Shown here piece after piece: positions 1 to 57,681 of a stretch of 64,000 bases of DNA (within the stretch, counting starts at the first letter, position 1; every line of letters starts with the position of its first letter). This DNA comes from Massalongia carnosa (lineage: Eukaryota), in NCBI GenBank assembly GCA_965645245.1, contig OZ287087.1, positions 930,001 through 994,000 on the forward strand, in the 5' to 3' direction. Both the position numbers and the translations under genes were made by a program. The notes under the pieces are model-generated. The model was not told the origin of the DNA and did not search any database. It worked only from the letters and a program-made list of their open reading frames with translations.

Positions 1-888
1 GCCAAGCTATCCACCGGATACCACCCGGAGACCGACGGGCAGACCGAGCGAGCCAACGCCACCATGGAGCACTACCTAAGGGCTTATGTCAACTACATGC
101 AGGATGACTGGGCACAATGGCTTCCTGGCGCCGAATTCGCCAGCAATAACACCGATTCATCTAGTATCCTGGCCTCCCCCTTCCTAGCCAACTTCGGGCA
201 ACATCCCCGCATGGGATTTGAACCGGAGGAACCCCTGCCGCAAGACCTAACCGCTCAGGGCAGAGCAAACCTAGTTGCAGCCAATCAGTTCGTGAATAAG
301 ATGCAGGATATCGACACTCATCTTCGAGACGAAATGCTGATGGCCCAAGCTTCGTACGAAGCAACTGCAAATGCTAACCGACGTCCCTGCCCCCGCTATT
401 TCGTTGGCGATATGGTGTGGCTAAGCACCAGAAATATCCAAACCGCTCGCCCCACAGTCAAGCTGGATGACCGAAATATCGGCCCCTACCGCGTCAGCAA
501 GGTGTTTTCCAACCCCTTGATCGTACAGCTGGAGCTTCCCGATACCGTCAAAATCCATCCCGTCTTTCACGTCAATCTGTTGCAGCATGATGCCAATGAC
601 CCCCTCCCCGGGCAGAGACCGGAGCCTAGAGACCCCGTCATCGCCGAAGATGGCCAACGAGAATGGTATGTCAATAGGGTATTGAATTCCAAGCTCGACC
701 GACGTTTTCAACCCCCGCTTCTGAAATACCTAGTGGATTGGGAAGGGCATCCTTCCACCTGGGAGCCTTTCAACTATCTCATCAATTGTCAGCAAGTCAT
801 AGACGAATACCACCAAGCCTATCCCAATGCGGCCGGCCCTCATCTAAACCCCTGTCAAATTCCCCGTTGCCAATGCCACGAGGCATAG
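1..888 (+). CDS. Ty3/Gypsy (chromovirus) pol 3' end: integrase C-terminus plus chromodomain, 5' part outside window
   Basis: YHPETDGQTERAN integrase motif at the window start; GPY/F motif (KLDDRNIGPYRV...IHPVFHVNLL); chromodomain (EWYVNRVLNSKL...YLVDWEGHPSTWEP); followed by polypurine tract GAAGGGGGAG at 918-927. Confidence 0.95.
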   Translation, partial: AKLSTGYHPETDGQTERANATMEHYLRAYVNYMQDDWAQWLPGAEFASNNTDSSSILASPFLANFGQHPRMGFEPEEPLPQDLTAQGRANLVAANQFVNKMQDIDTHLRDEMLMAQASYEATANANRRPCPRYFVGDMVWLSTRNIQTARPTVKLDDRNIGPYRVSKVFSNPLIVQLELPDTVKIHPVFHVNLLQHDANDPLPGQRPEPRDPVIAEDGQREWYVNRVLNSKLDRRFQPPLLKYLVDWEGHPSTWEPFNYLINCQQVIDEYHQAYPNAAGPHLNPCQIPRCQCHEA

Positions 889-16313: not shown

Positions 16314-16377
16314 AAATCCAAGGAACCAAAGGGACCCTCTTTTTTTCCCCGCTCAGTAACCCCTACTCCTAAGCACG

Positions 16378-19300
16378 ATGGCCAAAGGGGAGAGTCTATA
16401 CACATTCCCAAAGCTAATGGGGAGTGGAAACTATAAGAAATGGTCCAGAGACATGGCCTTCGCCCTGCAGGAGGCGGAACTTTGGAACTACGTGACTGGT
16501 GCTCGGAAAATGCCTCGAGAAATTCCCCCTCCACCTCCAAAAGCTGATGAGATACCCCCGGAGGAAACAGAGGAACAGCTAGAAAAGCGGGACAAACGGG
16601 ACCATGAACGCCTAGAGTTCTCGGAGAATCAAAGGAGAGTAGTTTGTAAAATAGGCAAGATGTGCACAGATGACGTGCAACAGGAATTCTTGTCGATGAG
16701 AGACCTAGCCAGTGGGGGCATCTGGGACCCGAAGGACCTTTGGGAACACCTGAAAACCCGATACACCCTCAGAAATTGGAGTGCGAAATGGAGCACATTC
16801 AACCGGCTGGAGGAGATAAACTATGAAAATTGCAAGACCATCGAGGAGTATGGTAGCCTAGTCAGGGATATCAAGGCCGAAATCACCGACATGGCCCTGA
16901 CCGTTGAGCACATTGTAGTGCTCAAACTCCTCAATGGACTCAGCAGTTCATTCAACACCTACTTGACCATCCTGAACGAACAAGCTCGGCGGGAGGTTAA
17001 ATTCCCGGCGTTGGATGACTTACTAAAAAACCTGGAGGACGAGGAGGCTCGTATGCGCCAGGACCCTGTCGCCGTAGCTAACATGCTGAAGGCAAAGGGG
17101 AAGAAGAACCCCACCGAACAGGGTAAGACCAAATGCAAATGCTGTGGTTATAATCACTCCGGAAAATGCAGGCATAGCAACGCTACATGTAGGAAGTGTA
17201 GTAAGATTGGCCATCTGGAACGCATTTGTGAAAGCAAAGAAGGTAATGAAACCTCAAACCCCCAAATAGTTTGTACAATAAGGGAATGTTCCGGGAAAAG
17301 AACCCAGGAAACACCGCTTATTTGTATGGCAAATCTGTACCGAGGTCCCAAGAATGCCCACGATCTATTGATCGACTCCGGTGCCACCGCGCACATTATA
17401 TGCAATAAAGATCTCTTTCAAGAAGTGACCTTTCTGAGCGAAAATAGCTGTTTAGAAACTGGTTCCGGAGAGGTGTTATCGACAGAGGGGAAAGGCTCTC
17501 TGCTCGTACCACTGGACAATGGAAATAGAGGTGTAACGTACCTCATTTTGACCAACGTCCTTTTCGCCCCCGACCTAAAATTCAACCTCATCAGCATAAT
17601 ACAACTCGGCAAAAAGGGCATATCTACGTACCTGATGGCGGATGACAAGCCCGCTCAACTGGTGCATAAAGGAAAGGTGGTTGGACTGGCCAAAACAATA
17701 AATAATCAGTATGTTTTGCAGACAACCACTATTAGCCCTACCGAAGCACGGGCCCTCACCACCACAAACGGTACAAAGGCCCCTATCCAAACATGGCACG
17801 AACGACTCGGCCATCTCAGCTACCCAAACCTCCTATAATTAAATCATTTAGCCAATGGAGTCACCATCGAAGGACCCATACCAGAAGAAGTATGCGGCTT
17901 ATGCATGATGGGAAGACAACAGCGGAAAATAAATCGCACTCCACGAACCCGAGCAACAGAATTTCTCGGAATAGTGCATAGCGACTTAGGGGGACCATTT
18001 CCACTGACAAGGTTCGGTGAGCGTTTTTATGCTACGATGAAAGACGACTTCTCCGGGGTAGTGTGGATCTACCTGCTGAAAACAAAGGGTCAAACCTTCA
18101 AATGTTTTAAGCAGTTCAAGACATGGATAGAAAATCAATCGGGAATGAAAATAAAGAGACTCCGAGCTGATGGAGGAGGGGAGTACACCAGTGGTGAATT
18201 CCAGGAATTCCTAAAGAGTGAAGGCATCCAGTGGGAGGCCCGGGCACCAAATGTGCCAGAACAGAATGGGAAGGCCGAAAGGCAAAATTATACCCTCATG
18301 GTCCCCACTCGGTCCATGATGAAGGCTAAAAAGCTCCCAAAGTCCCTTTGGGGGGAGGTCCTGAAGACGGCCGGGTACATCAAGAATAGAAGTCCCGGGG
18401 TTGACGAGGTCACTCCATATGAACGCATGAATAATGCGAAACCCTTCTTCGGCCACATGAGAACGGTCGGGGCAAGGACGTGGGTACATATCCCAAAAGA
18501 GAAGCGCAAGAAGCTGGACGATAGGTCCTGGCAGGGGATATTTGTTGGGTATGAAGGAAACAATCAGTATCGAATTTACGATCCTCTCACTGGAAAAGTC
18601 CATGTTTGTCGCGATATCACCTTCTACGAAGGCAATATATATGATTCCAAGGACAAAAAGGCCTGGGACCTAGCCGACATTCCATGGGAGGGAGACGATG
18701 ATGCTTTGTTTGATGACCCAGATGATTTTGTTGATGAAAACAAAAGTCATAATCCGCCATCTTCGTTGTCTCCAAAAACTCCGAGCTCTGAAATATCGAG
18801 AAGTTCGGAAGTTCAAAATGAAACGGCCCCACCAGCACCACGGATAGTGCTACATCCAATGGGAGTAAATGCTTCGGGGGGAGGCCGAGAAGAGGAGAAT
18901 GGGGGGGAGAGTGACTCCGATGAAGTGGAGGACATTTCTCGCCAGCCCATCGAACCTCGAAGATCTGGACGACTAAGGGTCCCCAGTCAAAGAGCACTGG
19001 AGAACATTTGTCCCAGCATCAACACCGTATTCAGTTCAAACCAGGTCCCGAAATCCCATGAGCACATGGTGCGGGTGCTAGCAACCCTGGCAGGTGGCGA
19101 GGACAATGAGGGCCTCGATGATCCTTTGACACTGAAAGAGGCTATGTCCTCACCCCACTGGGATCAATGGAGAAAGACCATGGAGACCGAGTATCAATCG
19201 CTAGTGGAGAATAAAACTTGGACACTAGAAAGGGCACCGACTGATCGAAAGGTGATCACCGGTCGCTGGGTGTTCAAAATAAAGAAAGACAGAGATGGTA

Positions 19301-20067
19301 AAGTACTGAAGTACAAAGCGAGATGGGTAGCTCATGGCTATAAACAAAAGGAAGGCCTGGACTACCTCGACACCTTTGCCACAGCGGTATAACCAGTCTC
19401 TTATAAGGCATTGATGGGAATCAGTGTAAAGAAGGGACTGTCCATTCATCACATGGATTTGGTGACTGCTTTCCTGTATGGCTCCCTAGATGAAGCCATA
19501 TATGTCATACAACCCACCTTGTTCGAAAAAGGGGAGAACAAGGTCTGCTTACTACGAAAGGCCCTATATGGCCTAAAACAATCCCCTCGTGTATGGTACC
19601 AGACCCTGCAGGATTTTCTGCAAAAGATGGGATTTAAACGAACAGATTCGGATCATGGAGTCTTTGTATCGGACGATATCTTTATAGCGATTTACGTTGA
19701 CGACCTTCTCATCTTCGGAAAAGACACTTCAAAATTGCAGCAATTGCAACTCGAATTGAAGTCCCGTTTCCGCATGACGGACTTGGGAGAAGTCTCCCAT
19801 TATCTGGGAATCGAAGTCGATGTCAACATTGAAAAATCGGTTATAACTATTCGACAAACAACTTACCTGAAGAAGGTGCTGCAGCGATTTAATATGGTCG
19901 ACTGCAGGCCCATTTCCACCCCCATGGACCCCGGTGCCGGAAACACACTCATGCCGTCGGAAGACCAGGCCGACAAGGAAACAATTGCCTGGTACCAGTC
20001 GGTGGCGGGCTCGCTGATGTGGCCAGCCATGCATACACGCCCCGACATCGCTTATGCAGTGGGAGTT
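16378..20067 (+). pseudogene. Ty1/Copia gag-pol (gag, protease, integrase, RT) in one frame with two premature TAA stops; 3'-truncated
   Basis: CRKCSKIGH knuckle, LLIDSGATAH protease, WHERLGH, HSDLGGP...RADGGGEY...EQNGKAER integrase, YKARWVAHG and IYVDDLLI RT; ORFs starting 16378, 17905 and 19411 share a frame. Confidence 0.95.
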
Positions 20068-21226
20068 ACTGGCCGCTAAACCCTTTGAGGACTTTAAGTC
20101 AATGCTTGGCATGGGCTAAACCCAAAGAGGCAAAAATATCCGGAGAGCCTCTAACATACTCGCTCCCTGGGTTAAAAATGACCTAAATGATGATGTTGTC
20201 ATCTCTACGGCTGACTCTGGTTGTACCAATGATTGGTTGAGATTGCAATGGATAAAACACTTTGATAAACACACTGAAAAAATCCGGAAAGGGGCTTGGA
20301 GACTTTTGATCATGGAAGGTTTTGGGTCGCATCATACTCGTGAATTTATAGACTATTGTGAAATCAAAAACATTGTTCCATTCGGATTACCTTCTCATAC
20401 CACACATCTCTTGCAGCCATTGGATGTGTGTGTGTTTCAGCCTCTGAAACACTGGCACTCCGAGGCCGTCAATGAGGCAATTCAGAACGGAGACGAAACG
20501 TTCTCCAACGTCAAATTTTTTGCTGTATTTGACTCGTTTCGATCGCGAGCGTTTAAATCATCAACAATAAAGTCCGCTTGGAAACAAACGGGCTTGATTC
20601 CATACAATCCGGAAATTGTTCTCGATAAAGTTCGAGAACTTCTTCCTCGTCCTCGTGAATCAACTCCAACTCCAACTCCGTCTCATATAGCACCTCAATC
20701 AGTACAAAAAACTCCTCGAACCGTGCGACAGTTGGCCGAGGTAGCCACAGAAATTATGATGCATCCGGCTTGTTCTGGTGATCTTGTACAAATGGTCAGC
20801 AAATTTGTGAAAGGAGCTGTGGCCGAAGTACGAAAAGGCGATCTTCTCGAACAATGCTGGGAACAGCAAACCGCGGCCCAGACTGCTCGAAAAGCTCGTA
20901 AACGAGAGTCCAATAAGATTCTCCATCGCGGAGGTGTACTTACTGTTGGAGAGGCCCGTTCAATGGTTCGAGACAGGGAGGAGCTAGAGGAGGAGAGAGA
21001 GAAAGAACGAGGGGTCGCATGGGAAAAGCGCTATTGTACGGCTCTCACCAAGGTGGCTAGACAGTCAAAAGCGCATAGAAAGATGCTCATGACTAGGCGA
21101 ATGAATAGTCACAAAAGATGGATGGTGATCATGAAGGAATTGTTGAAAAAAACCCCGATGTATGTAGAATAGTTGATTTTTGATTGTATGGCTGGCTAGC
21201 ACTAAGCGAGGCCGACCGAGCGAAAG
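20068..21226 (+). pseudogene. pogo/Fot1 DDE_1 transposase 3' half (ORF 20237-21172) between two inverted Copia copies
   Basis: WRLLIMEGFGSH, LPSHTTHLLQPLDVCVFQPLK, TGLIPYNP, GGVLTVGEAR. Confidence 0.9.
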
Positions 21227-24339: not shown

Positions 24340-25530
24340 ATAGTAACCGGCGTCACTATGTGGCTGACATTTTGCCCCCTAGCAGAACGGGTCAATAGAA
24401 GGGTTGCGATGTCTACTGGCCCCTGCCGTTTCTAACCCTAACCCTTGGATTGTTGGGTTTGAGACAAGTCTTTGCCATGTGGCCGTAATCGCCGCAGTTA
24501 TAGCACTTGATGGTACTGTAGTTGTTACCATTGTTGCCACGGCGTTCCCGCTGACGGCTCGGATCTGTCCTGTCATGATTGAAGGACCTTATAGGCTCCT
24601 TATTGTTTGATGCGTGTCGATTATACTTTCCTCCCTCGTTATATGTGCGATGAGAAGATACGGACCTCTTGCGACGCTGACCTTGATGGAAATCGTCCTT
24701 GTTCCTCTTGTCATGAATAAGGGTTTGATGAAAGCCAGATCGGTAATCATTCCCCGAATCCGATTTCCAGACGTTCCATCCAGTTGTGGCGTCGCTATCC
24801 CATGTGAATCGCGATGATGCCTCTCTTCGGCCATTCGCCTTGGTACGGTTATAGTTGTTGTCAATGGCCTCGAGCTTCTGAGCTAAGGGTTCAAGGAGTT
24901 CCCGGGTGGTTACCGTAGAATTGTGCTTGATTATTTCTTCCCGGAGGGTAGGCTTCAGAGCTCCTAGGAGTGTGTTCATTCTCATGGATGACTCTTGTGG
25001 GGGTAGGATGTCTTCTATGCTCCTGATGTACGCGATTAGCTGGGCAACTGTTTGTCCTTCCCGTTGTCGCACTGAGCGGTACTTCAAGAACCCGTCATGA
25101 AGTCGGAGGTGTGGTGGCCAAACATCGTCTCTCAACCAGGTAACGTATGTTTCCCAGGTAATATTATCGAGACCTACCGCTTCCTCGTGTGTTTTTATTA
25201 TTTATTCATTAAGCGTATGCATCCTAAGAATATGACGCTGTGACTTTTATTTATGTACGTGAACAACAGTCAGGAAGTGGAACCCTGGCCCCCAGGGTAA
25301 AACCACTCCCTTGTTCCATATTGAATGCAACGAAATCGTTCTTCTACCACGCGGTGCATACACCCAGATCTTCAAGCGCTAGGAATCCTATTGACTCGAT
25401 GAACTAGACAGTGTATCTCCACACGTTCGACGAACGTTCTCTCTCTTTAACCGTTTTGACTCAATGAAGGAAAGACTGGCCGTGATCGAGGGCAGATCGT
25501 GGTGTCGTATAAATGAAGGTGTGGAAGTGT

Positions 25531-25692
25531 GGCCATTCCGAATGAATGGGCTTTTCGATGTGGTGAAAGGCTTCCGCCTGAGGGGTGTGGCCATTCCGAA
25601 TAAATGGACTTTTTCGATAAGGTGAAAGGCTTCCGCCTGAGGGGTTTGGCCATTCCGAATGAATGGACTTTGTATGCCTTCGAAGTGGTGAA
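25531..25692. repeat. 58-59 bp tandem repeat (~2.7 copies) inside the retroposon
   Basis: GGCCATTCCGAAT.AATGG.CTTT units starting at 25531, 25589 and 25648. Confidence 0.88.
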
Positions 25693-25752
25693 TGATTAGT
25701 AGAGACGTTGATCATTAAAACGGCCACCAAGGTGGGCTTCCGCGTTGGCGAT

Positions 25753-25824
25753 GATCAGATATTGGCCACCTCCGAGGAGGTGTTGATAGCCTGCACCACG
25801 TAGAGGTTTCTGACCCAGCAGGCC
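25753..25824 (-). ncRNA. HDV-like self-cleaving ribozyme (double pseudoknot)
   Basis: Minus strand: P1 GGCCUGC/GCAGGCU with G1.U wobble; P2 GGUCAGA/UCUGAUC; P3 ACC/GGU; L3 UCUACGU; P4 CACCUC-CUCG-GAGGUG; J4/2 GCCAA carrying the catalytic-position C. Confidence 0.85.
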
Positions 25825-26855
25825 GCTTCCTCGTGGGTCTGCCACTTGATAACGACGTCTCCTCGCTTGAAGTCTTTTGCGAAAAGGATCTGTCCCTTGG
25901 CCATATCATATGTGGCAGGCTTTTGCTGAAAAGCCTGTAGACATTGGGCTATGAAGATGACACATTTAGCATACGTGTCAGCTTTGTACAGATCTACCTT
26001 GATAACGTTTAGCCGAGCCTCAACCTTTTGATTGTTCTCTAGCTTCTTCTCGAGTATCTCTTCGCTGGACGGCAACCCGCTGCTGCGGCCCAAGTGAGAC
26101 AACGTTATTGGATCGGTATCAGCGAGAGGAAAACCGTCCTGCTCTTCTTGCTCCATGATGGCAAGCTGTCAGCTGAGGTGAGCCTCAGCTTTCTTTGCCA
26201 TGATGGTATCTATACAAGCTTGCATCTGCTCCTTGGTTAACGTTACTTCAGGAGAGGGAATGCTTTGGCTTGGTTTTGTTGGACCCGACGCCGTGCCGGT
26301 GTCTGGCCCGGTGTCCATCTGACTGTATACCACGATTCCAATGCCAGGATGTTGAGCCTCTGGCTCCAGTTCATACACCGATGTTGGGTCGCCTACGGAG
26401 CGACTTCGAAGAGTGTAAGAGGGCATATTATAGGATATATGTATGTCGTTGAGACGACAGAAGAGGGTAGAGTTCCCACTGGACCACTCGTCGTAATGGA
26501 TCATACAATATGTGAGAGTGACTCTGGACTGGGAGTAATTTAGTGGGTTAAAGGTGTCACGGTGCTAGGTCAAGTTGGTAATTCAGGATTGTCTAGCTAA
26601 GTGGACAAGACGTTCGACAAGGAGAAAAGAAACAGAAAATCAAATGTGGGCGAGTATAAGACAGACGAGTGGAACTAACGTATTTCACTGGGCAACGGGA
26701 CTAACTAAATTTCGCTTAATTTCTAAAGCCTACCTCTCACCCTTTTTACATACAAATTCGGCTTCAATATCTATTAGACATGAAATTGATATTTTATCTG
26801 CATGCAAAGGTGTCAGTAAGATTAAATTTATAGTTGTATAATAACAGCTTTATCT

Positions 26856-27521
26856 CGGGATAATAAAGAAGCACTTTGAGAATCAGTAGATCAACAAGTG
26901 GAAAGCATATCAAGCAAAACACACGTTATATCCCACGATCGCACAACAGGCGCCTATACACAGGAAAAGGCTTAACGCACACAAGTTACTAGACAAAGCG
27001 CAAAGCTCACTAGCAACACAGATAAGAACGGAAAAAATCGGACTGGCCAACTTTCTATATCGGCGCAAGGTCCCAGGTGTGAACTCGGCGGCATGTCCCT
27101 GCGGAAGCCTCTTGCAAACAGCCAAACATGTAATCATGTTCTGCAGACTGCACGAACACAGAACGCACATGCTACGAACGGCAGGCTCGTCAGACTACCG
27201 CAAGCTAATCACCGAACCCAAAGCTCTCAAAGTAGTAACCGCGTGGCTCATGCGCATAGGTATTTTAACACAGTATTCCATTGCCACGCAACTGCTTGAA
27301 CAGCAGCTGGGCAGTCTCTCTTCAGTTTGAAAAACAGGTATCGCAGATTTTCGAGATACACGAATCAATCCGCGGGAGCGGCGAACCCCCGATGAAGCGG
27401 ATACGCAGGAGTAGTTTTTCACCTTTGGGTTTTCTACTTATTACATAGCTTATATAGCATCTCCCGCATGGGCCGGCCTTCGGCCGGTGACACAACGGCG
27501 TAAGAATAATCAAATCAAATC
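26856..27521 (+). mobile_element. 5'-truncated Tad1 LINE insertion
   Basis: Exact 13-bp TSD AACAGCTTTATCT (26843-26855, 27522-27534); SSLATQIRTEKIGLANFL and CPCG...HVIMFC; (CAAAT)n tail. Confidence 0.92.
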
Positions 27522-27534
27522 AACAGCTTTATCT

Positions 27535-30500
27535 TCAACTTGTCGCGAAAATGACTACACTCGTACAAACAAACGCGCTCTCGAGAGCGCACAGCGAAAG
27601 GAGGGAATGTTTGCACGTAAAGATCAAGGAGTATCTTGATCGAGTGGGCACCGTTGGTGACCCGGAGGCGTTGCAGTTGCTGAGAAACTCAGCGGAAATT
27701 TTGCAAGCGCAAAATCTAGTCGATGACAAAGTTGCAGAAACTCCCAACAACATAGGTGACACATTACAGGCAATCCAACAATCATTGACACGCATAGAGC
27801 GCAATGAGACCACTCCTCGCAGCTATGCCGCTGCTGCCACAGGGCAAGGCCGAGATGAGCCCGCACCCCCAAAGAACCAAAACGTCAAGCCTCGACAGGC
27901 CCGCAAACACAAAGCACCCACACCAGGAGAAGCGCGACGTGCTCGGGAAATCACCGTTCACATCACGGAGGATGCGGACAAGGAAAAAATGAAGCTAATG
28001 CCAACCAAGGAGTTGGTAGAAACACTACAAAATGGAGCTGAAGGAATAAGGGGAGTGTCGCGTTTGTTAAACGGCGACATCAGGATTCACGCAGAGTCAT
28101 TGGAAGCAAAGAAGACCCTGCAGGAGAAGACCGATTGGATCCGCATGGTGGCCGTCTCAGCTGCGGTGCACACCCGCACCTTCACCGTAAGAGCGAATGG
28201 AATCAGGGTGGAAAACATCAAAGTGGCCAATCAATCAATAGCCATCACCTACCTTCAGGCCGCTAACGCACGCCTGCACCCTAACCTGAAGATCGTCAAA
28301 GTAGCCTGGTCAATCAAGGCCATCAGAGAAAAAAGCGTACTCGACGCTTCATATAGAGGTCGCCACCGCCGAGATGGCTAACCGGCTCATCACCGAGGGC
28401 CTAATGGAAAGCTACGAAATAAAGGACTGCGAGCGCTTCACACGTGGTTGCACCATGACTCAATGCTTCAACTGCCAAAAATACGGACACATCGGTAGAG
28501 CATGCCGCAATCCTGCCGCCTGTGGTCACTGCGCCGGTGGACATCAAAGCAAAGAATGCAATCTGGAGACAACGGGGCAATACCGCCGTTGCGCCGTATG
28601 TGGAGAGAAGGGACACGAAGCATGGTCCACAGCATGCAAAGTCAGATTAGCTGAAAAGCGAAAAACTGAAATAGCAATGCAAAACCGCGCCCCCCTCTAT
28701 GCAATCGAATCACAGCCGCCCTCATTTCAATTTCAACTTCAACGAGAGTCGACACCCGCAGTCACACAAACGGACGAAACTCCGTCAACGTGGAAGATAG
28801 TAAACGGCAAGAAAAGAAAAATACACAACGCTACGCCCTCATCCGGCACACCCCCGGGCCCTCATCGGGGAGACGACGCACCTACCTGGGCTAATATAGG
28901 CATCATGAATCCTGAAAATATGGTAAAGGCCTTAGCAAATCCAGTGCTGGGTAGGCCTCGTGCAGATTCCGTAGCATTAACGGCAGGAACTCAGGTCACA
29001 TCGAACACAGCGGCCGAAACGATGGAAATCCTATGAGGATCACAAAATCCCTCTCTACATTGCAGTATAATGTCAGAAATGACAGAGTGAGTAATATGAT
29101 ACCCCTCTTAGCAGACACAAACACCCAGGACTATGATATTATTGCAATACAGGAACCGTGGCGCAATCCATCCGCCCCCACATCGCTTAGTTCTCATCAA
29201 AGCGGCTTTCACCTCCTATACCGCCCAGGAGGTGACACCAGAGTGTGCTTTTATGTCAACGACCTAATAGACACTGACAGCTGGTAGGTGGAATTCACCT
29301 CGGCCGACATGTGCACTTTGAAAATAAAGACCTACACCGAAGGCGTTATGGAAACAATTCACGTCCATAATGTGTATAACCCCTCTCCCGCCTTCTATTC
29401 ATCCACTGACAGTCCCACGACCTTACCGGCGGCTCGGAGCATGCTTACCGCCGATGCGCATCACATACTACTTGGAGATTTCAACCTGCATCATCCCTTT
29501 TGGAATGGTCCCTCAAGACCCACACAACACGCTGCTGCTGATCAATTACTAGAAATAATCGATGATCATAATCTTTCGTTGACACTGCCGAAAGGTACCG
29601 TAACATGGGAAGCAAGAAACACGTCTAGCACGATAGATTTGGTTTTCATGTCAGAATACCTAGTCGAAAGACTCGAACACTGCATGTCTAGACCAGAATT
29701 GAATCAATCGTCCGATCACGTGCCGATATCAACCCGCATCTTACTCGGAAGCGAGCCCCAACCGAAAATCAAACGAAGAGCATGGAAACTTCTAAACCTG
29801 GAAAAATTAAGGGAGGCCGAACGACACGCCCCTATACTGGAGTCTCCTCGTACCACTGCCGAGATTGATGCGTACACGGAATCGATTCAAAAATTTCTAC
29901 AAAATGTCATCAACGAAGCAGTTCCATGGGCATAATCTAGCGAATATGCTAAGCCATTCTGGACAGAAGAATGCAGCATTGCCACCAAAGCCACACGGAA
30001 ACTACGCCGCATATGGTCTAGCACGTTAGACCTAACGGACTGGTCTAACTATATGAAATCTAATGATAAAAAACAGAAAATCATTCAAAAGGCAAAGAGA
30101 ACAAACTTTCGTCAAGAAATCAATAAGGCCACCGAAACGCCTGAGGGACTATGGCGGCTAGCGAAATGGGCCAAAGACAAAAGTCATCAATCTAGATAAG
30201 TATCCAAAATGCCGATGCTAAAATTCAATAACCAAGTAGCAGACACGTTTGACCAAAAAGCCGAAATACTGAAAGGTGTCTTCTTTCCCGCACCACCACC
30301 GGCCGACCTAAGCGACATAGAAAGATCCTTCTATCCTACATCGCCGCACTGCCCAATAATCATCACCAAGTCAGAAGTATCGACGGCCCTGAGTCAGCTC
30401 AAGTCCGATAAGGCACCGGGCCCAGACGGCATATCTAACAGAATACTCAAAGCATGCAGCGAAATACTTGTCGAACTACTAACACCTCTGTTTCAGGCGT

Positions 30501-32636
30501 GCGTCACACACTCGTACCACCCGTGGGCCTTCAATATGGCAAACACAATAGCGCTGAAAAAAATAGGCAAAGGAGACTATACCACTCCGAAAGCCTACCG
30601 ACCAATTACACTGCTCAACACGCTCAGTAAAGTTATGGAATCCATGATTGGATCGAAAATAACCTATCTGGCGGAAAAACACCCGCTCCTACCCGATACA
30701 CAGATGGGAGTAAGGAAGGGCAGATCCACAGAGTCAGCACTGGAACTGCTAACTGAACTGGTTCACACGATTTGGGGACAGGGAAAAGACAAAGTAGCCA
30801 CACTGCTAAGCATGGACGTCGCCGGCGCGTTCGATACGGTATCACATCAACGACTAACGCACAACCTACGGAAAAGAAAAATTTCAATATGGATCACCGA
30901 CTGGTTAAACAGCTTTCTGAGCGATCGAAGCACCACTTTAGCAATAAATCGAAAAGTCACCGGGCGGTTTGCGGTAAGAACGGGTATCCCGCAGGGCTCT
31001 CCCCTGTCATCCATTCTTTACCTATTTTACAATGCAGATCTATTGGAAATATGTGATCGACCAGGCAAAAACACAAGTGCCATAGGATTCGTAGACGACG
31101 CAATCATTTTTGCATATATAAAAAGCACCGAGGAAAACTGCAAAACTCTATAGGCAATACACAGACAATGTGAGACGTGGGCTTCCCGGCACGGGTCCGT
31201 AGTCGCTCTGACGAAGTACGAACTCATACACTTGTCCAGAAATCCCAAAAGATTCAACATGACTGCATCAATCAATATTGCTAGCACCGAAATTGAACCT
31301 AAAACGGACATCAGAGTATTGGGCCTACAAATCGACACCAAAATGAAATGGGGACCGCACGTTCGCAAAACGCAAGAGAAAATGGTCAAACAATCCATGG
31401 CATTGACAAAAATTTTCACATCAACCTGGGGTGCCACCTTCGCCAAGGCAAGGCAGGTTTACAGTGCCGTGGTGCGTCCGGCCATGACATATGGGTCAAC
31501 CGTATGGCACATGCCCAAAGAAGTCAAAAAGTCAAAAAGTCAAAAACGTCAACGAGCAAGCTCTCCGTCATGCAAAACAATTGCCTTCGCACCATAGCCG
31601 GTGCTTTTAAAGCCACTCCCATCTCAGTACTAGAAGCAGAGACATTCATAGCGCCCATAGACACGCATCTCGACATGCTACAAGCACAGGCAAGGCACTG
31701 CTCCGAGCCGGAGGCCAATTGAAGATCATCTCCTCCGCATGCAACAAAATAGCTGGCAAACTTCGAGGCAAGGCAGGTCGCAAACGACTTCAAAAGCCCA
31801 CCCCGGGAGAGCTGAAACACGTCTGGGCCAAAAGCCTACTGATCGACTCAAAAATAATTCAACCACCAAAGGCACACCAACAATGGTTCGAAGTCCACCC
31901 GGTGTGGTACCGCGAAGCTACCGTTGCGGCAACGGCCCGACACAAGCAGATGCAAACAATCAAAGCACGACAAATGAAGGTCTGGAACGACTCGTGGTGC
32001 GCATATCAAAATCGCGTCATCGAACCCTCCATAGCACAATCAGTCCCACTGAGCAAAAAACGGCTGAAAATACACACGTAGCTAAAAAAGGTAGAAAGCG
32101 CTCTAACAACTCAAATCCGCACTGGCAAGATCGGGTTAGCTGACTTCCTCTACAAGCGACAGGTGCCCTTCGTCACCTCACCGGCCTGCTCATGTGGCTA
32201 GCACAGACAAACTCCAGAACATGTAATCATGTTCTGCAGACTTATTGACAATAGAGAACAGATGTTTCGCGCCGCCGGCACGAGCGACTATCAGCAGCTG
32301 ACCAAATCATCAAAAACTCTGATGATACTAACTGCTTGGCTAATGAAAACAGGCTTATTGAATCAATTCTCACTAGCATCAAAATTATTGTAAAATCAAC
32401 AATAGTTGAACCTTTCTTTCTTTCTTCTCTTTTCACAAGGCATTACAGTTACCACACGTCTTTTGCACTGCGTCTCCCGCCCAACGTCGACCCGTAGTCA
32501 CATCGGACGGGTATCAAGGGATATGGTTTTTACACCTGTGAAAGGTTTTCCATGTAATATAACTTAGATAGCTTTGCCCGCATGGGCCGGCCTACGGCCG
32601 GTGTCATATCGGAGTATGAATACATCATCATCATCT
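27535..32636 (+). mobile_element. Full-length, lightly decayed Tad1-clade LINE (family C)
   Basis: ORF1 27551-29036 (one frameshift; CCHC knuckles); ORF2 29033-~32395 with APE (IQEPW, GDFNLHH, SDH), RT (GIPQGSPLS, GFVDD) and C-terminal knuckle; (CAT)n tail. Confidence 0.95.
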
Positions 32637-41202: not shown

Positions 41203-44200
41203 CATGAGACGTTATTCCCAAGCCGTTATGTTGCCGTCTGGCACGGCACATAGGATAGCTGTCTCATCTAACACTCGCGATGCTCCCAGATCTTGGCTCA
41301 TCCCACACTGGGCTCCGGAAATAACTGCATGACTAATCACTTAAATTCCGAGTCCTGTAAAAAGACGTCGAAATTGAAAAGAATGAAGCAACTTTCCTTA
41401 AAGGTTGGATATCGTGCCGAAGTATGAATACCTTAATGACTACCACATTACGTGCTTTGCTAATCAATATTAGATTGAAGCAAAAAGACAAGAGGCCTTA
41501 ACTCTCAACGGGCGTAGACTAAAAAATGATTATTTCACGCCTCAATTGCTTCGTATGATTGTTGCTCTTGGGCTTCCGTTACGAAGTGTCGCCAATGTCG
41601 AATTGCAAAGAGCGTTTAACTGTCTCCTCGATAATGTACAGTTTCCTTCACTATCGACAATCAAGAATCGTTTGATAACCCGAAGTCAAAAGATTAATCC
41701 GCTTTTGCTCGAGAGGCTACCTAGGGGTAGTTCAAAGCTCTCTCTGGCTTTGGATTGTTGGTCGTTATTTAATCGTCAAGGTTATCTGGCCATCAATGCT
41801 TACTTCATTGACGATAAATGGAATTATCACGAAGTGTTTCTTGCCTTCGAACACGTTGAAGGCTCACATATGGGAATAAAACTTTCTGAAGTATTGAACA
41901 GCGTTTTAATTAGACATTCTATTGAAGATCGTTTTTTGGCATTAACAACGGACAGTGCATCTAATAACACAACGATAGTAGATGAGTTGCGATGCATGAT
42001 ACGAAGCAATCGAGCCTTTGCACTTCTACACACTGATGCTAATGAGATACAGCGAGTGCCTTATTTATCGCATGTAATTCAACTTGCCGTGAAACAGCTT
42101 CTTGGGTGTATTCATATTAATCCCAAAAATGCCGATTTCAAAACTGGCTGGGATGATAAGCAAGATAGACGGGATTTCGAAAACCCGACACCTGGAGTTC
42201 CCCTTACGCTAGCTAAGTCAAGATTTATTTTGTGGTAGTCGTTGTGGTAGTCGTTCTAAATTTCGATTAGGTTCGAGCATTAGCTGTTTACATTAATAGT
42301 AGCAATTTACGTAAGGAGAACTTCTACGCTTTTCAACGAGCATTGAATGACGAAGAGAGACGCACTGGAAACTCGGTCAACGGTACAGTACTTAAGCTTT
42401 TTCAAGATGTAAATACTCGATGGGACTCCACTTGTCACATGTTAATTCGAGCGCTCAAGTTGCGACAAGCGCTGAATAGATATCATGATAAACATGAAGC
42501 CGAATATTTGAGATTGCTCGACGCGGAATAGTCACAGATAGAATATCTTATTGATTTAACGAAGCTATTCTGCATCTTCACAAAGATGATTGGTTAATCA
42601 AAGCAACCGACCATTCATCAGGTGTTTGAGATCTACAATAAGCTGTTCGATCATCCAGATCAAGCTCGCGCAAGATTATCTCGTAAGCGAGTATCGAGGA
42701 AACGTGCGCTATTGAATGGCATCGAGACGGCTGCAACGAAATTACGTCAATACTATTCTAAAACCCAGTGGTCAATAGGTTATCTATATGGAAAGGCGGC
42801 ATTGCTATCTCCCAATAAGAAGGACCTAATTTTCAAGGTTCCCAATTGGGATGCGCCCTATGGGGAAAGTCGATGGGAAGATCAATATTGGCAATCTCAT
42901 GAAGCGGAATTCGATATCAACGAGAATTCTCAAACCTCACATGTACGCGGGCGTAATGTCGCGGTCATTCGAGACTTGAATAATCTGGATCTTCTTCTGA
43001 GTACGAATAATACTACTCCGCTCGCTCTAGATGACGAGTTAAACTGCTATCGTCAGCGAGGTAGGTTAACTAATACTATAAATCAGATCTTTTCTCATTG
43101 TGTTCAACTTATTTACAATACACAGCGATGCATGATCGTTCGGGTCCTATTCTACAACTGTGGAAAGATCTCGAGCCGGAATTTCCACAAATGAGTATGG
43201 TTGCCAGGGACATCCTTGCTGTACCAGCCGCTGGCGTTGGAATTGAGCGCGTTTTTAGCGTTGCGGGAGCCCTTTACGATCATCGCAAGAATTTTCATCG
43301 GGATACATTCTCCGCGATAATGATGGTTCGTTTCTACGATCAGAAGGAGAATGCAGATGCAAGTTTACACGTAGATATGGAAGAAGAAGAAAGCATGAGT
43401 CTCCAGGATTTGACTAATGAGATGCAAAGGCGACATGAAGACCTAACACAGGTTTTTCAGAAGGTCTATATTAGTGATAAAGAAGACGATATCAATGACG
43501 AGGATCAGTTAACGCAGATCGGGTCATCGCAGGTTGAGCAGGTCTCAGCGCGAGATGTAAGCATCGAGTCACTTAATTTCAATTCTTCTTGAGCTAATTA
43601 TTCTACAGAAAAGTAAGATACGAACTTACAATAATAGAAACTCCATTCCCGAGCAACGCGATAGGAATAAGAGGATTGCAACGCGCACAAGAAGGGGTAG
43701 GCTTCAATCAATCGGGGAGGTGAAGGAGGGTATGATAGAGGAGGGTGTAGTGGATATGGTGGAGGAGGAGGAGGAGGACGAGGGTGTAGTAGATGAGGAG
43801 GAGGAGGAGGAGGAGGAAGGTGTGGTGGAGGATGAGGTAGAGGAGGGGGGTGGAGAGGGTGGGGGTGACAAGAAGGTGGAGAGTAAAGGAAGAGATGGCG
43901 AGAGACTTTCTTAACGAGTTTTGAATAGGAAGCGATGAATGGGCGACATACTTCGATATTTATTCGATAGAAGATAGCATATGAGTTTGTGATAGTCTTT
44001 ATGGTTGTTAGACGTCAACGAACTAAATGTTTTATCTATAATCTACATTTTACTTTGTGATAGTTATTAAAAAAAATCTACAATGATTGAAAATCCGGAA
44101 GGGGTGTGTCTAGGTAGCCGGAGAGGGTGTGTCTAGGTAGAGGATGGGGTGTCCATATGTATATCAGTACCCTTTTCTGTTGGTTAACCCAACGATAACC

Positions 44201-45001
44201 CAACCCAACCCAAAACCCATTGGGTTGGGTTCTTATTTTAATAACCCAACCCATTCCGCGGCGTAATTATGAAGAATCCGGGGAATTAATCACGTTTCAC
44301 CGTTGAATTCTTTTCCCAAAATCTTTCCCTCTAGATAGGTCCACGAACTGTGAGTAATACGTAATCGAGTGCCGTTACCGTGACTAAGATTGGGATACAA
44401 ATTCTGCAACAAAATAATCGGAGCTCTAAGTTTCAGTAGTAATTGTGAAGGTGGTAAAGACGATATTTGCTAGGGTTGTAAAAACTCAGGAGAAAGAAAG
44501 TCTCCTCGTTCCTGCGCCGTATCCTTCTCTATTTGATTAACGGAGTTCAATGTATGCGAATCGCCCTGCAATTTATTGAGTACTGCATCGTTTAAATCCG
44601 CTACGATATCGTTTCGCAAAGTCAAAATTGCTCGACTTGCGAAAGAATCCGCATCCAGATGAGCTTGCCGCATGCGATCCAAAGTAAAAACGGTGGCCAC
44701 GAAGCTGTCTAAGTTGTTCAATTGATTGACTTGTTCCGGTAGCTGGACACGACCGTAAAAAGCAGGATTATAAGATTTTTTCCCGATATATTCCGCAACC
44801 GCACTTGCGACTTCGTTACGAATTCGCATATTTTTACGCAAAAACAGTTTTTGAAATCGCGGCCACAGAAAGGTGTTTTCAATGTTCGCCGCAACGATGG
44901 CTTCCCGATTTCCACGGGGAAAAACGGGCAATATTTGAGCGAAATCTCCGCCTAACACTATCGGAAAACCTCCGAAAGATCATTATTGCTTAAAAGGTCT
45001 G

Positions 45002-55560: not shown

Positions 55561-57681
55561 GTTAGATAAAGTTGTGACGGACTAAACTTATTTTTATTTT
55601 TATTTATGCATTAGATTTATTCAACCTAAGGTTATGATACTTAACTATTTACCAATATGTTTCTATAATACATATAAATCCACCCTTTATAACCCTTCTA
55701 TGTATCGTCGATTTTACCCCGTTTTTACTCCGTTTTAGTAGTAACAACCCATAGTAATCGATAATTTATCGATTTTACAATTTGTCTTTGTAAGTTCGTA
55801 AATTTTTCAGAATAAATCAATTCTGATTTTACTGCTCGATCTCTCCACAACTTCCAGTTTCGGCAATTTCGTCACCAAGCTGTCCTAGTATCTATTTTCT
55901 AGTCGCGATTTTGTTATTGACAATGAATTTAATCAAAATATTAGTTCCGATTTTTTGTTGAATAACATATTCAAGTTAATCCTAGTATTGACATTTTGTT
56001 TCATGTATTAAATTTTATCGGAATAGTAAATACAATTCAATGACAAGTGTTATGGCATTTGTCATTTAATGCAACGATTTATGTATTTTGACGAATTATA
56101 ATCTTTCAATTGACGTAAATATGATCGAAAATAGCCGTATTCGAATTTTAATTGCATAATAATTGCAAATATCAGTTTGGAACAGTTGTTTGATAAATAA
56201 TGAAAACTCGATATGCCAGGTTTCATTTCGAATTTCTCGTAGTTATTTTATTTTATTTATTCATTAAGTGTATTCAACCTAAGGTTATGATACTAAACTA
56301 TTTTAGGATATGTTTCTATAATACAAATAAATCAACCCTTTATAACTAATCTATGAAACGAATGAAAAGAGTTCAGCGGAACTTCGTTAATATTGTTCTC
56401 GAAGACCTCGTTAATAAGATTTTCATAGACCTCGTTAACAACGTTCGGTCATACTCTTAAAAATTCAAGTCCTTTCATGCAGTCATCGGCTGAGAGCTAA
56501 AGACGTACGACACGGGTCAGCTATGTCTATCACACGGTTCTCCTTCGTCTACAACACAGAGTCCTCCGGCTGAAAGAAATACAACATATATAAAAATAGT
56601 GTAGGGTCACACCCTACACGATACAAGGGATTTGCGACATGAAAACAATCCGATTGATGGCTACCGCAAGTAACACGGCCCGAACCGGAGTCTTACCGGG
56701 GATGGTGGAGGCAACCTAGTCATCAAATAGGACACCCTTGGGACAAGAAGAGGGCAATCTACGAGGAACCCGTTAACTGATAACAGTCTAGGCCCTGAGC
56801 TAATAGACGAATTTCAAACGAGCACCCTTCCGAGTTGTCCTCGACTCGTTTTGGTTCGTAGGGACGGAAAATCGATACTATACTGCCTGGTCAGGAGCAT
56901 ATTGGTCAAAATCCCTGCGAGATATGGTCGTTTCATAAATGGGAGACCTTTATGAGTAACGCGAAGTGGGCGTAAAAACCCGTGAGGCGTGGTATGCAAT
57001 GGCGGCCACCATATGGAGACCGTCTGCATAGCCCGAGAGGATAGTATGCGCATGTCGGTATATATAGAGCAGGGAATGTCTATCTCGCTCGTAACCAGAC
57101 TCCGTCGGTTCACCGGCGCATGGGCTGCGGCTAGACACGCACTTGATATATGCTTAAAGAGTAAACTGGGTTTGACCTGGGCGAAAGGGACGTCGTTCAC
57201 CCCAATCGTAGAATTCATCAATAGTCTTGGGCCGTAAAACGCTGTGAAGGGATAAACTGGGTGGTGGCGAACGATAGAAGGATGAAACAAACAAACAAAT
57301 GACCGAATCAACAGAGCCTCACTGCATCGATGAATTAATCGTCATGCCCATCAATGGCCGACTAGCTGTATGAATGAAAGTGTCTATGATAGCTGTATGT
57401 GTTGATAGCAGTATGATCCGAAGATGGATATCCCGAAAGATGAGAAGGAAAGTTTGAGAAAAAGACTCATATAACCGGAACGCCAAGACGCCAGCACCCG
57501 ACCACATGACCAATCACCTGACTCATCACCTCACTTGCCACCGACCCGGTGGAGTTCCACTCCACCCCTCTACAACGCACAAGTGAGATGAACGTAAACT
57601 GGGAAAGAGACTTCACGAAGGAGATGTCAACTCTATTTTATCATTCTTAGTCAACAACTACAACTATTAATGGAATGTGTA

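Follow-up and report, generated by a model that had tools for sequence, protein, structure and literature searches.

The locus considered here raises the question of how a non-coding repeat, lodged inside the gag-like frame of an LTR retrotransposon, has come by a precisely defined 5' end. The window, by which we mean the whole stretch of DNA that was analysed (64 kb), carries one such insertion on its minus strand, and the reading that we consider likely is that it belongs to a high-copy, non-coding, non-autonomous family of non-LTR retroposons whose 5' end is made by a predicted HDV-like self-cleaving ribozyme. This reading is built on a fold-compatible sequence, a clean insertion, a high copy number and a 5' end that is fixed at the predicted point of cleavage.

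The insertion and its putative ribozyme head

The element is a clean insertion of 635 nt on the minus strand (25824..25190), within a CCHC-type gag frame, and the discreteness that the earlier note had ascribed to it is borne out by the flanks. Translated separately, these read ...VVIKWQTHEE upstream and THEEAVGLDNITWETYV...CYNCGDYGHMAKTC downstream, the frame before the insert being ...KWQTHEE and that after the insert THEEAVGLDNITW..., and as one frame runs across both flanks, the insertion must be clean and sense-oriented within the gag-like ORF. The target site duplication (TSD) is CACGAGGAAGCGG, present at 25835..25823 and at 25189..25177 (minus strand); by its letters it is 13 bp long, not the 14 bp previously counted, and the gag residues THEE are accordingly seen twice in the flank translation, once per TSD copy. 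The 5' junction has a microhomology of 2 nt, the terminal GG of the TSD being ambiguous with G1G2 of the element, and with G1 at 25824 the proposed coincidence of cleavage site and TSD boundary stands. The A-rich tail that had been described is likewise present, as the element ends in ...AATAAATAATAAAAACA at 25190. The CCHC zinc knuckle is the sole Pfam match of the host ORF, and the Gypsy affiliation given to it in the earlier note is therefore only putative. A Copia-type element lies directly downstream of this gag-like ORF, on the same strand. The insertion and its surroundings are as follows.

24416..26168, minus: host ORF, LTR-retrotransposon-type gag with a CCHC knuckle, interrupted by the element in sense
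25823..25835, minus: upstream copy of the TSD, the final 2 bases doubling as G1 and G2 of the element
25177..25189, minus: downstream copy of the TSD, read from the sequence

Ribozymes of the HDV-like class fold as a nested double pseudoknot and cut at the base of a P1 helix of about 7 bp, typically at a G.U or a purine-pyrimidine pair. Their catalytic C is located in J4/2, and P1.1, a mini-helix between L3 and J1/4, usually has 2 bp. Cleavage is Mg2+-dependent, and the ends produced are a 5'-OH and a 2',3'-cyclic phosphate. The first 72 nt of the element follow the order P1-P2-P3-P3'-P1'-P4-P2' of this class, with 7 bp in P1, 7 in P2, 3 in P3 and 6 in P4. The 5' half consists of P1 (GGCCUGC), J1/2 (UG), P2 (GGUCAGA), J2/3 (A), P3 (ACC) and L3 (UCUACGU), and the 3' half of P3' (GGU), P1' (GCAGGCU), J1/4 (AUCAA), P4 (CACCUC-CUCG-GAGGUG), J4/2 (GCCAAUA) and P2' (UCUGAUC), so that every segment of the HDV/CPEB3-type fold is found as it was first listed. 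The parts of the predicted head are placed as follows.

25753..25824, minus: HDV-like ribozyme head, 72 nt, matched by RF02682 and RF00094; predicted cut 5' of G1 (25824)
25818..25824, minus: 5' strand of P1, 7 bp with 25788-25794, with a basal G1.U37 wobble
25809..25815, minus: 5' strand of P2, 7 bp with 25753-25759, including one G.U; the pseudoknot helix, unscored by the Rfam model
25795..25807, minus: P3 (3 bp) with the 7-nt L3, 13 of 13 nt as in the RF02682 consensus line
25783..25787, minus: J1/4, AUCAA, in which A38 can pair with U23 (the sole P1.1 pair) and U39 stands opposite C22
25767..25782, minus: P4 hairpin, 6 bp, with a loop of 4 nt
25760..25766, minus: J4/2, in which C60 (25765) is aligned to the catalytic C of both RF02682 and RF00094

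The G1.U37 pair at the base of P1 fits the cleavage-site rule of the HDV class, and G1 is also the 5' boundary of the family (see below). A single nucleotide, A17, separates P2 from P3, and C60 is, by its place in the alignments, the candidate catalytic C.

In the Rfam search of the locus, the model for the HDV ribozyme from F. prausnitzii (RF02682) matches 25824..25753 on the minus strand over its entire length (1-74 of 74) with 29.9 bits (E = 0.0043 over 2 kb, E = 0.14 over the whole window), and the HDV ribozyme model RF00094 gives 24.5 bits at the same place, both below the respective gathering thresholds of 44 and 50. The RF02682 match is the best of those for 4227 Rfam families across the window, it begins exactly at the insertion boundary, and its alignment covers P1, P3, L3, the CAA of J1/4, P4 and the C of J4/2; the same scan gave no other HDV-like match in the 64 kb. 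A P2 helix of at least 7 bp in the same geometry arises by chance in about 4% of cases (4398 of 100000 shuffles and 663 of 18260 segments of the window). Thermodynamic folding is less telling: the minimum-energy fold of the 72-mer has P1 and P4, that with 40 upstream bases has P2, P3 and P4, and the z-score of -1.73, with 9 of 200 shuffles folding equally well, is not significant, as is expected for a pseudoknot. A structure-only descriptor is unspecific as well, as it gives 14 start sites across the window, and the case for the fold therefore rests on the covariance model, P2 and position.

Family copies, the fixed 5' end and the AU subtype

Parts of the stretch are contained in 20 public runs, of which 10 are lichen metagenomes, one is a plant metagenome and the other nine have coded names for their organisms. 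Contigs of four of these (X1, X4, X5 and X6; X4 is labelled 'DNA?', the other three '?', and none is labelled RNA) were aligned to the stretch at 80% likeness, which placed 1946, 249, 121 and 29 contigs, respectively. Of the sampled words, a fraction of just 0.08 is present in the RNA runs X18-X20, and exact 20-mer scans of genome contigs and of viral contigs gave 0 matches. Summed depth in X1 amounts to 252,520-708,316 over 25208-25801, versus 17,527-38,600 in the gag flanks, an excess of about 7-40 times that is one of depth and not of copy number. By the contigs placed, the family is of high copy number, being highly repeated in all four runs. Its host is probably a lichen-associated fungus, since the nearest Atlas clusters of the LINE reverse transcriptase are mainly fungal and the runs come from lichen samples.

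These copies share one 5' end. Among the best-supported loose ends of contigs, beside which 192 further rows exist, 12, 11, 7 and 2 contigs in X1, X4, X5 and X6 end at 25824, and 7, 7, 0 and 1 end at 25825, which means that 47 of the listed contigs lose similarity at G1 or one position further out and have unrelated flanks (agreement of 0.40-0.47 wherever at least 7 contigs end at 25824/25825). The family therefore occupies many insertion sites with a single 5' end, located at the predicted cleavage site, and the accumulation of 5' ends at G1 anticipated in the earlier note is seen in four separate runs. The 3' ends are spread over 25185-25216, as variable A tails would give. None of the best 40 of 102 variant rows falls within 25753-25824, while differences shared by nearly all contigs appear elsewhere, and so the head of this copy must be at or near the majority sequence.

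Close copies were also found via translation. Frame 1, counted from G1, runs for 42 codons without a stop, and six ORFs belonging to other copies, located on ENA contigs 0.12-2.4 Mb in length, came up when the resulting peptide was used as a query; a query with the frame-3 translation gave no candidate copies. Five of the six resemble the element from codon 1 (nt 1-3) onwards and have unrelated residues ahead of it; in P0003, codons 1, 2 and 5 are different. Over the 24 residues that the ribozyme encodes, two of the six show no change and three others show one each: L16F (inferred C46>U) retains a U.G pair in P4, G18R falls in the P4 loop, and P7A in P0004 (inferred C19>G) disrupts P3. Overall, 6 of 144 positions are changed in the head versus 20 of 108 in the next 18 residues, although 6 of these 20 downstream changes represent F36, private to this copy, and 4 in P0007 may represent a frameshift. 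As the close copies are too alike, and are compared as translations, they give no evidence of covariation inside the family. Two diverged copies, P0009 and P0010, were added by a profile search of cluster representatives; they have several changes in common, some compatible with pairing (inferred U37>C, giving G1-C37, and changes of G11 or U71 within P2), others affecting the core (inferred U23>G, among others); since old copies decay neutrally, these changes speak neither for nor against function.

The feature of the head that departs most from the usual is P1.1. The F. prausnitzii type, as represented in the Rfam alignment, has AGG after P1', and the pairs U23-A38 and C22-G39 connect it with L3. 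The element has AU in this place, and therefore only U23-A38 can form and C22 faces U39. The description of P1.1 as one U-A pair plus a mismatch thus stands, but the suggestion that went with it, that this copy may be decayed, is probably wrong, for AU is found in 6 of 81 unrelated matches listed, and Tyr13 (U37 A38 Y39) is invariant in all six close copies. The latter means that A38 is conserved; as to nt 39, a G or an A would create a stop codon and so remain invisible, and the ORF-based sample is biased at this position.

The unrelated matches come from a metagenome scan with a degenerate core pattern, which returned at least 121 stretches, with 81 unique matches among those listed; the positions fixed by the pattern do not count as conserved, while the helices and J1/4 were left free. 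The listed matches are mostly gut-metagenome contigs with ribozymes of the F. prausnitzii type (65 of the 81 unique ones), and the retroposon family itself is absent from 120 loci among them. J1/4 begins with AGG in 65 of the 81 and with AU in six (L012, L022, L036, L090, L094 and L115). In these six, the P1, P2 and P4 sequences differ yet pair, one nucleotide lies between P2 and P3, and two have a G.U at the cleavage site (L036 and L115). Two of the six sit directly between tRNA genes, which is the published setting of theta ribozymes, as far as the consulted portion of that report describes it (PMC10879173). Scored with RF02682, the AU type reaches 36.4-44.8 bits, five of the six falling below 44, and the AGG type 74-79 bits (three ribozymes at two loci, L002 and L004). 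Judging from these sequences, AU appears to be a natural subtype, and probably the normal state of the family rather than the decay of this copy.

Body, proposed mechanism and rival explanations

The rest of the element fits the earlier view of it as non-autonomous. No ATG ORF longer than 84 aa is present in the 635 nt, and the longest stop-to-stop frames are without a Pfam match. No tRNA, no terminal inverted repeats and no B box were found in the element, other Rfam families gave only weak, chance-level matches there at E <= 10, and neither a hammerhead nor another ribozyme family was found in the window, nor a second ribozyme in the element. The body likewise shows no trace of RT or EN. Classical SINEs have a head derived from tRNA, 7SL or 5S RNA, with an internal Pol III promoter, and neither was found in the element. 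What it does have, a TSD, an A-rich 3' tail and many dispersed copies, and what it lacks, terminal repeats and coding capacity, are together the properties of non-autonomous non-LTR retroposons. The body and tail include the following features, with related fragments elsewhere in the window.

25527..25671, minus: internal tandem repeat, 2.5 copies of a 59-bp unit, where other copies are without 117 nt
25190..25235, minus: 3' tail module with the A-rich end, about 45 nt of it common to a second repeat family
56246..56355, minus: fragment of the second repeat family, about 110 bp, with the same tail module, by sequence comparison
55592-55702: another fragment of the second repeat family, 111 bp

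The shortened form of the tandem repeat is seen as a skip from 25550 to 25668 in contigs of X1, X4 and X5. The tail is shared: at the loose end 25236, 13 X1 contigs enter the second repeat family with an agreement of 0.99, and the final ~45 nt of the element are found again at the ends of the two fragments, at 56290-56246 and, with a weaker match, at 55637-55597. At the other side, the ribozyme's last base, 25753, is the precise point at which four X5 contigs diverge, and it is also the base that one deletion joint in X1 connects to 25696. The head and the tail hence behave like modules, which is also the case in internally deleted derivatives of LINEs. The window was searched for a partner LINE with the head or the tail of the element, and none was found, nor was a convincing ORF over 1.4 kb on the upstream side of the fragment that has the tail. 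The two LINEs present, LINE A (plus strand, ~27.5-32.6 kb) and LINE B (minus strand, 62.4-57.7 kb), which are ~69% alike, were rejected as partners, their 3' ends consisting of a GC-rich stem-loop and ATC repeats, unlike the tail.

By analogy with R2, RTE/Baggins and L1Tc/NARTc, as these are presented in the portions consulted of the respective papers (PMC6765202, PMC3774820, PMC4035085, PMC3185411, PMC3383444, PMC3414825), the cycle of such an element could be envisaged as follows. A copy would be transcribed from an upstream promoter or by read-through, which at this site would mean in sense within the gag of an LTR element. The first 72 nt would fold as a nested double pseudoknot and be cut 5' of G1 co-transcriptionally, leaving an RNA with a 5'-OH at G1, whose 3' end would be provided by AAUAAA-like signals and the A-rich tail or by polyadenylation. 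A LINE reverse transcriptase, acting in trans, would then carry target-primed reverse transcription up to G1. The expected products would be full-length copies with a fixed 5' end and TSDs of 11-13 bp, the present copy having in addition the GG microhomology of 2 nt.

The same 5' boundary could be produced without any RNA cleavage, if the HDV-like fold were fortuitous, or a dead relic, and G1 were simply the transcription start from a promoter located within or upstream of the element. A defined start site would lead to such an accumulation of 5' ends in any retroposon, and the Rfam scores below gathering, the single canonical pair in P1.1, the unremarkable z-score and the 14 sites matched by the loose descriptor speak for such a scenario. 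Against it, the model match and the similarity within the family begin at the same base, the CAA of J1/4, the C of J4/2 and all 13 nt of the P3-L3-P3 block match, and a 7-bp P2 is found independently of the model; the head also varies less than the sequence next to it, and no B box or tRNA head was found. We consider this explanation unlikely. An even more improbable one, to which we give very little credence, is a retrozyme-like cycle, in which tandem copies would be cut into unit-length RNAs, ligated into circles and reverse-transcribed. Retrozymes carry hammerhead ribozymes in their repeats and have circular RNA intermediates. One X1 contig does contain a head-to-tail joint (25824 to 25200), and the 5'-OH and 2',3'-cyclic phosphate ends left by a ribozyme are, by established chemistry, substrates for tRNA ligases and could thus be joined. 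However, the joint occurs in this one contig only and is accounted for if one copy inserted into an older copy's A-rich tail, the element is without a second ribozyme, and linear target-primed reverse transcription is in keeping with copies that are dispersed and have TSDs and A tails.

Predicted self-cleavage at G1 thus being the reading that we retain, a further issue is that of origin. Rather than an independently assembled SINE, the family may be an internally deleted derivative, of the SIDE/NARTc type, of an autonomous LINE with the same head and tail, a scenario that is a compatible variant of the reading retained and a real possibility, albeit one with less than even chances. It would be in line with the modularity of head and tail (the divergence of the four X5 contigs at the last base of the ribozyme and the X1 joint starting from the same base), with the second family having only the last ~45 nt in common, and with the origin of NARTc and of the R2 SIDEs, which arose in this way according to the sections consulted (PMC4035085, PMC6765202, PMC3414825). 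The window, however, is without a LINE bearing this head or tail, and the body without a remnant of RT or EN.

Relation to known systems and significance

If cleavage is confirmed, the processing of retroposon 5' ends by HDV-like ribozymes, known from animals and trypanosomatids, would be extended to fungi, at least some of the fungal HDV-class ribozymes that are without an assigned role would have a simple explanation, and structure-function work would gain a natural ribozyme that is compact and has a P1.1 of one pair. In terms of annotation, the family is a high-copy repeat of lichen-associated genomes, with an exact 5' boundary and without the usual hallmarks of SINEs, and it could be missed or wrongly delimited.

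The fungal ribozymes in question have been surveyed: 230 variant representatives of the HDV class in 26 species, along with 11 canonical ones, are reported in the consulted text of Li and Breaker, 2017 (PMC5640933), in whose main text the word 'retrotransposon' does not occur. These variants, shown to self-cleave, belong to the HDV class as well and share with the element the extra nucleotide between P2 and P3 (A17), but their cleavage-site pair is C-G and their P4 has an E-loop, while the element has a G.U and a plain P4 of 6 bp (PMC5640933). In the literature searched, outside which most subscription papers fall, no paper was found that links HDV-like ribozymes to fungal or lichen retroposons. 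A far-reaching speculation, which we would regard as rather improbable at present, is that ribozyme-defined 5' ends are a general and unrecognised strategy of fungal non-LTR retroposons, of which the family of the lichen fungus would be the first clear example. The 'orphan' HDV-class ribozymes of fungi, with their variable neighbourhoods, would then be retroposon heads, and the head a portable module taken up by different bodies, with a core that hardly differs from that of the HDV-like ribozymes of bacteria and phages.

That core is where the likeness to RF02682 and to the theta-type, tRNA-flanked ribozymes is most apparent, as the P3-L3-P3 block (13 of 13), the CAA of J1/4, the GGC of J4/2 and the architecture, down to the one nucleotide between P2 and P3, all match the element. 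These RNAs are, however, bacterial or phage ones, in mRNA or tRNA contexts as far as the consulted part of the source goes (PMC10879173), and the element scores 29.9 bits as compared to 36-45 for the AU type and 74-79 for the AGG type.

As to the retroposons themselves, non-autonomous ones with ribozyme heads are well known, and those described in the portions consulted of the pertinent papers are NARTc, NARTco, RIME, SIDER and the R2 SIDEs (PMC3185411, PMC3383444, PMC4035085, PMC3414825, PMC6765202). Promoter-less elements known to combine self-cleavage with read-through transcription, from LTR retrotransposons among others, are in the sources consulted autonomous and coding, whereas the lichen element, at 635 nt, is non-coding. 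The R2 SIDEs of Drosophila are likewise non-coding, with an HDV-like ribozyme at the 5' end, a 3' end recognised by the LINE protein and release from co-transcripts, but they are specific to a site in 28S rDNA and are clearly derived from R2, while the lichen family is dispersed, with unrelated flanks in the 47 listed contigs (PMC3414825, PMC6765202; portions consulted). Closest in layout are NARTc/NARTco, RIME and SIDER of trypanosomatids, whose ribozyme is known as L1TcRz and which are, in the sections available, likewise short, dispersed and bounded by TSDs, their first ~77 nt being HDV-like and cut at the first nucleotide (PMC3185411, PMC3383444, PMC4035085). The trypanosomatid heads are shared with the autonomous LINE L1Tc/ingi and double as a promoter (Pr77), as stated in the part of PMC4035085 consulted, whereas for the lichen family no partner LINE was found in the window. 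The lichen family further differs from this group in its probable fungal host and in a ribozyme core resembling that of F. prausnitzii. With NARTc, NARTco, RIME, SIDER and the R2 SIDEs established, the kind of element described here is therefore already known, and what appears to be new is the host group.

Mobile elements of the window and the tail-sharing repeats

The window is a transposon graveyard, in which the ribozyme-headed element, a 635-nt non-coding retroposon, lies among elements of several other kinds, two LINEs included.

Mobile elements and repeat fragments of the window
1-885: chromodomain integrase end
16360-20076, plus strand: Copia-type element
20120-21169: DDE_1 (pogo/Fot1-like) transposase
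23770-21543, minus strand: Copia-type element
27463-27512, plus strand: LINE-type 3' fragment of 50 bp, just 5' of the LINE A start
27491-32635, plus strand: LINE A, with CCHC ORF1, AP-endonuclease and RT
43074-43589: hAT dimerisation domain
44473-44979: PIF1-helicase fragment
55592-55702, minus strand: 111-bp fragment of a second repeat family
56246-56355, minus strand: 111-bp fragment of the same family
62431-57685, minus strand: LINE B, with CCHC ORF1, AP-endonuclease and RT

LINE A and LINE B are related (about 69% DNA identity). Their 3' ends both carry a conserved stem-loop rich in GC and, after it, repeats of the triplets ATC/TCA; the 50-bp fragment is of the same kind as these ends. 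The second repeat family is represented by two fragments that are 86% alike, and because both share their final ~45 nt with the tail of the retroposon that carries the ribozyme, this family may represent the 3' end of the partner of the element. No clear ORF is found in the 1.4 kb upstream of the tail-sharing fragments.

Junctions and a diverged copy

Just past two A-rich tails, at 25181-25190 and 56233-56245 (minus strand), eight of 10 bases are alike, and this likeness hints at a target-site preference, from two sites only and with a weak flank consensus among the run contigs. A single contig of X1, one of four public sequencing runs whose contigs were aligned to the element and its flanks, contains a head-to-tail joint, the tail of one copy (25200) running directly onto G1 (25824) of the next.

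One diverged copy, whose translation was recovered as protein P0010, has a single repeat unit and, starting with an ATG at head codon 2, a frame of 152 codons without a stop; with so many copies of the element, such an ORF has most likely arisen by chance.

AU-type ribozymes in metagenomes

HDV-like ribozymes of the AU subtype, in which J1/4 begins with AU and not AGG after P1', also occur on metagenome contigs.

AU-type HDV-like ribozymes of metagenome contigs
L022, 5982-6061, plus strand: directly between tRNA genes
L115, 292-366, minus strand: directly between tRNA genes
L090 and L094, about 290-371, minus strand: near-identical pair on short contigs

The tRNA cluster of L022 comprises more than ten tRNA hits, and in both L090 and L094 a run of eight A residues lies directly 5' of the ribozyme. 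When compared to the Rfam HDV-like family RF02682, the L022 and L115 ribozymes score at or below the threshold.
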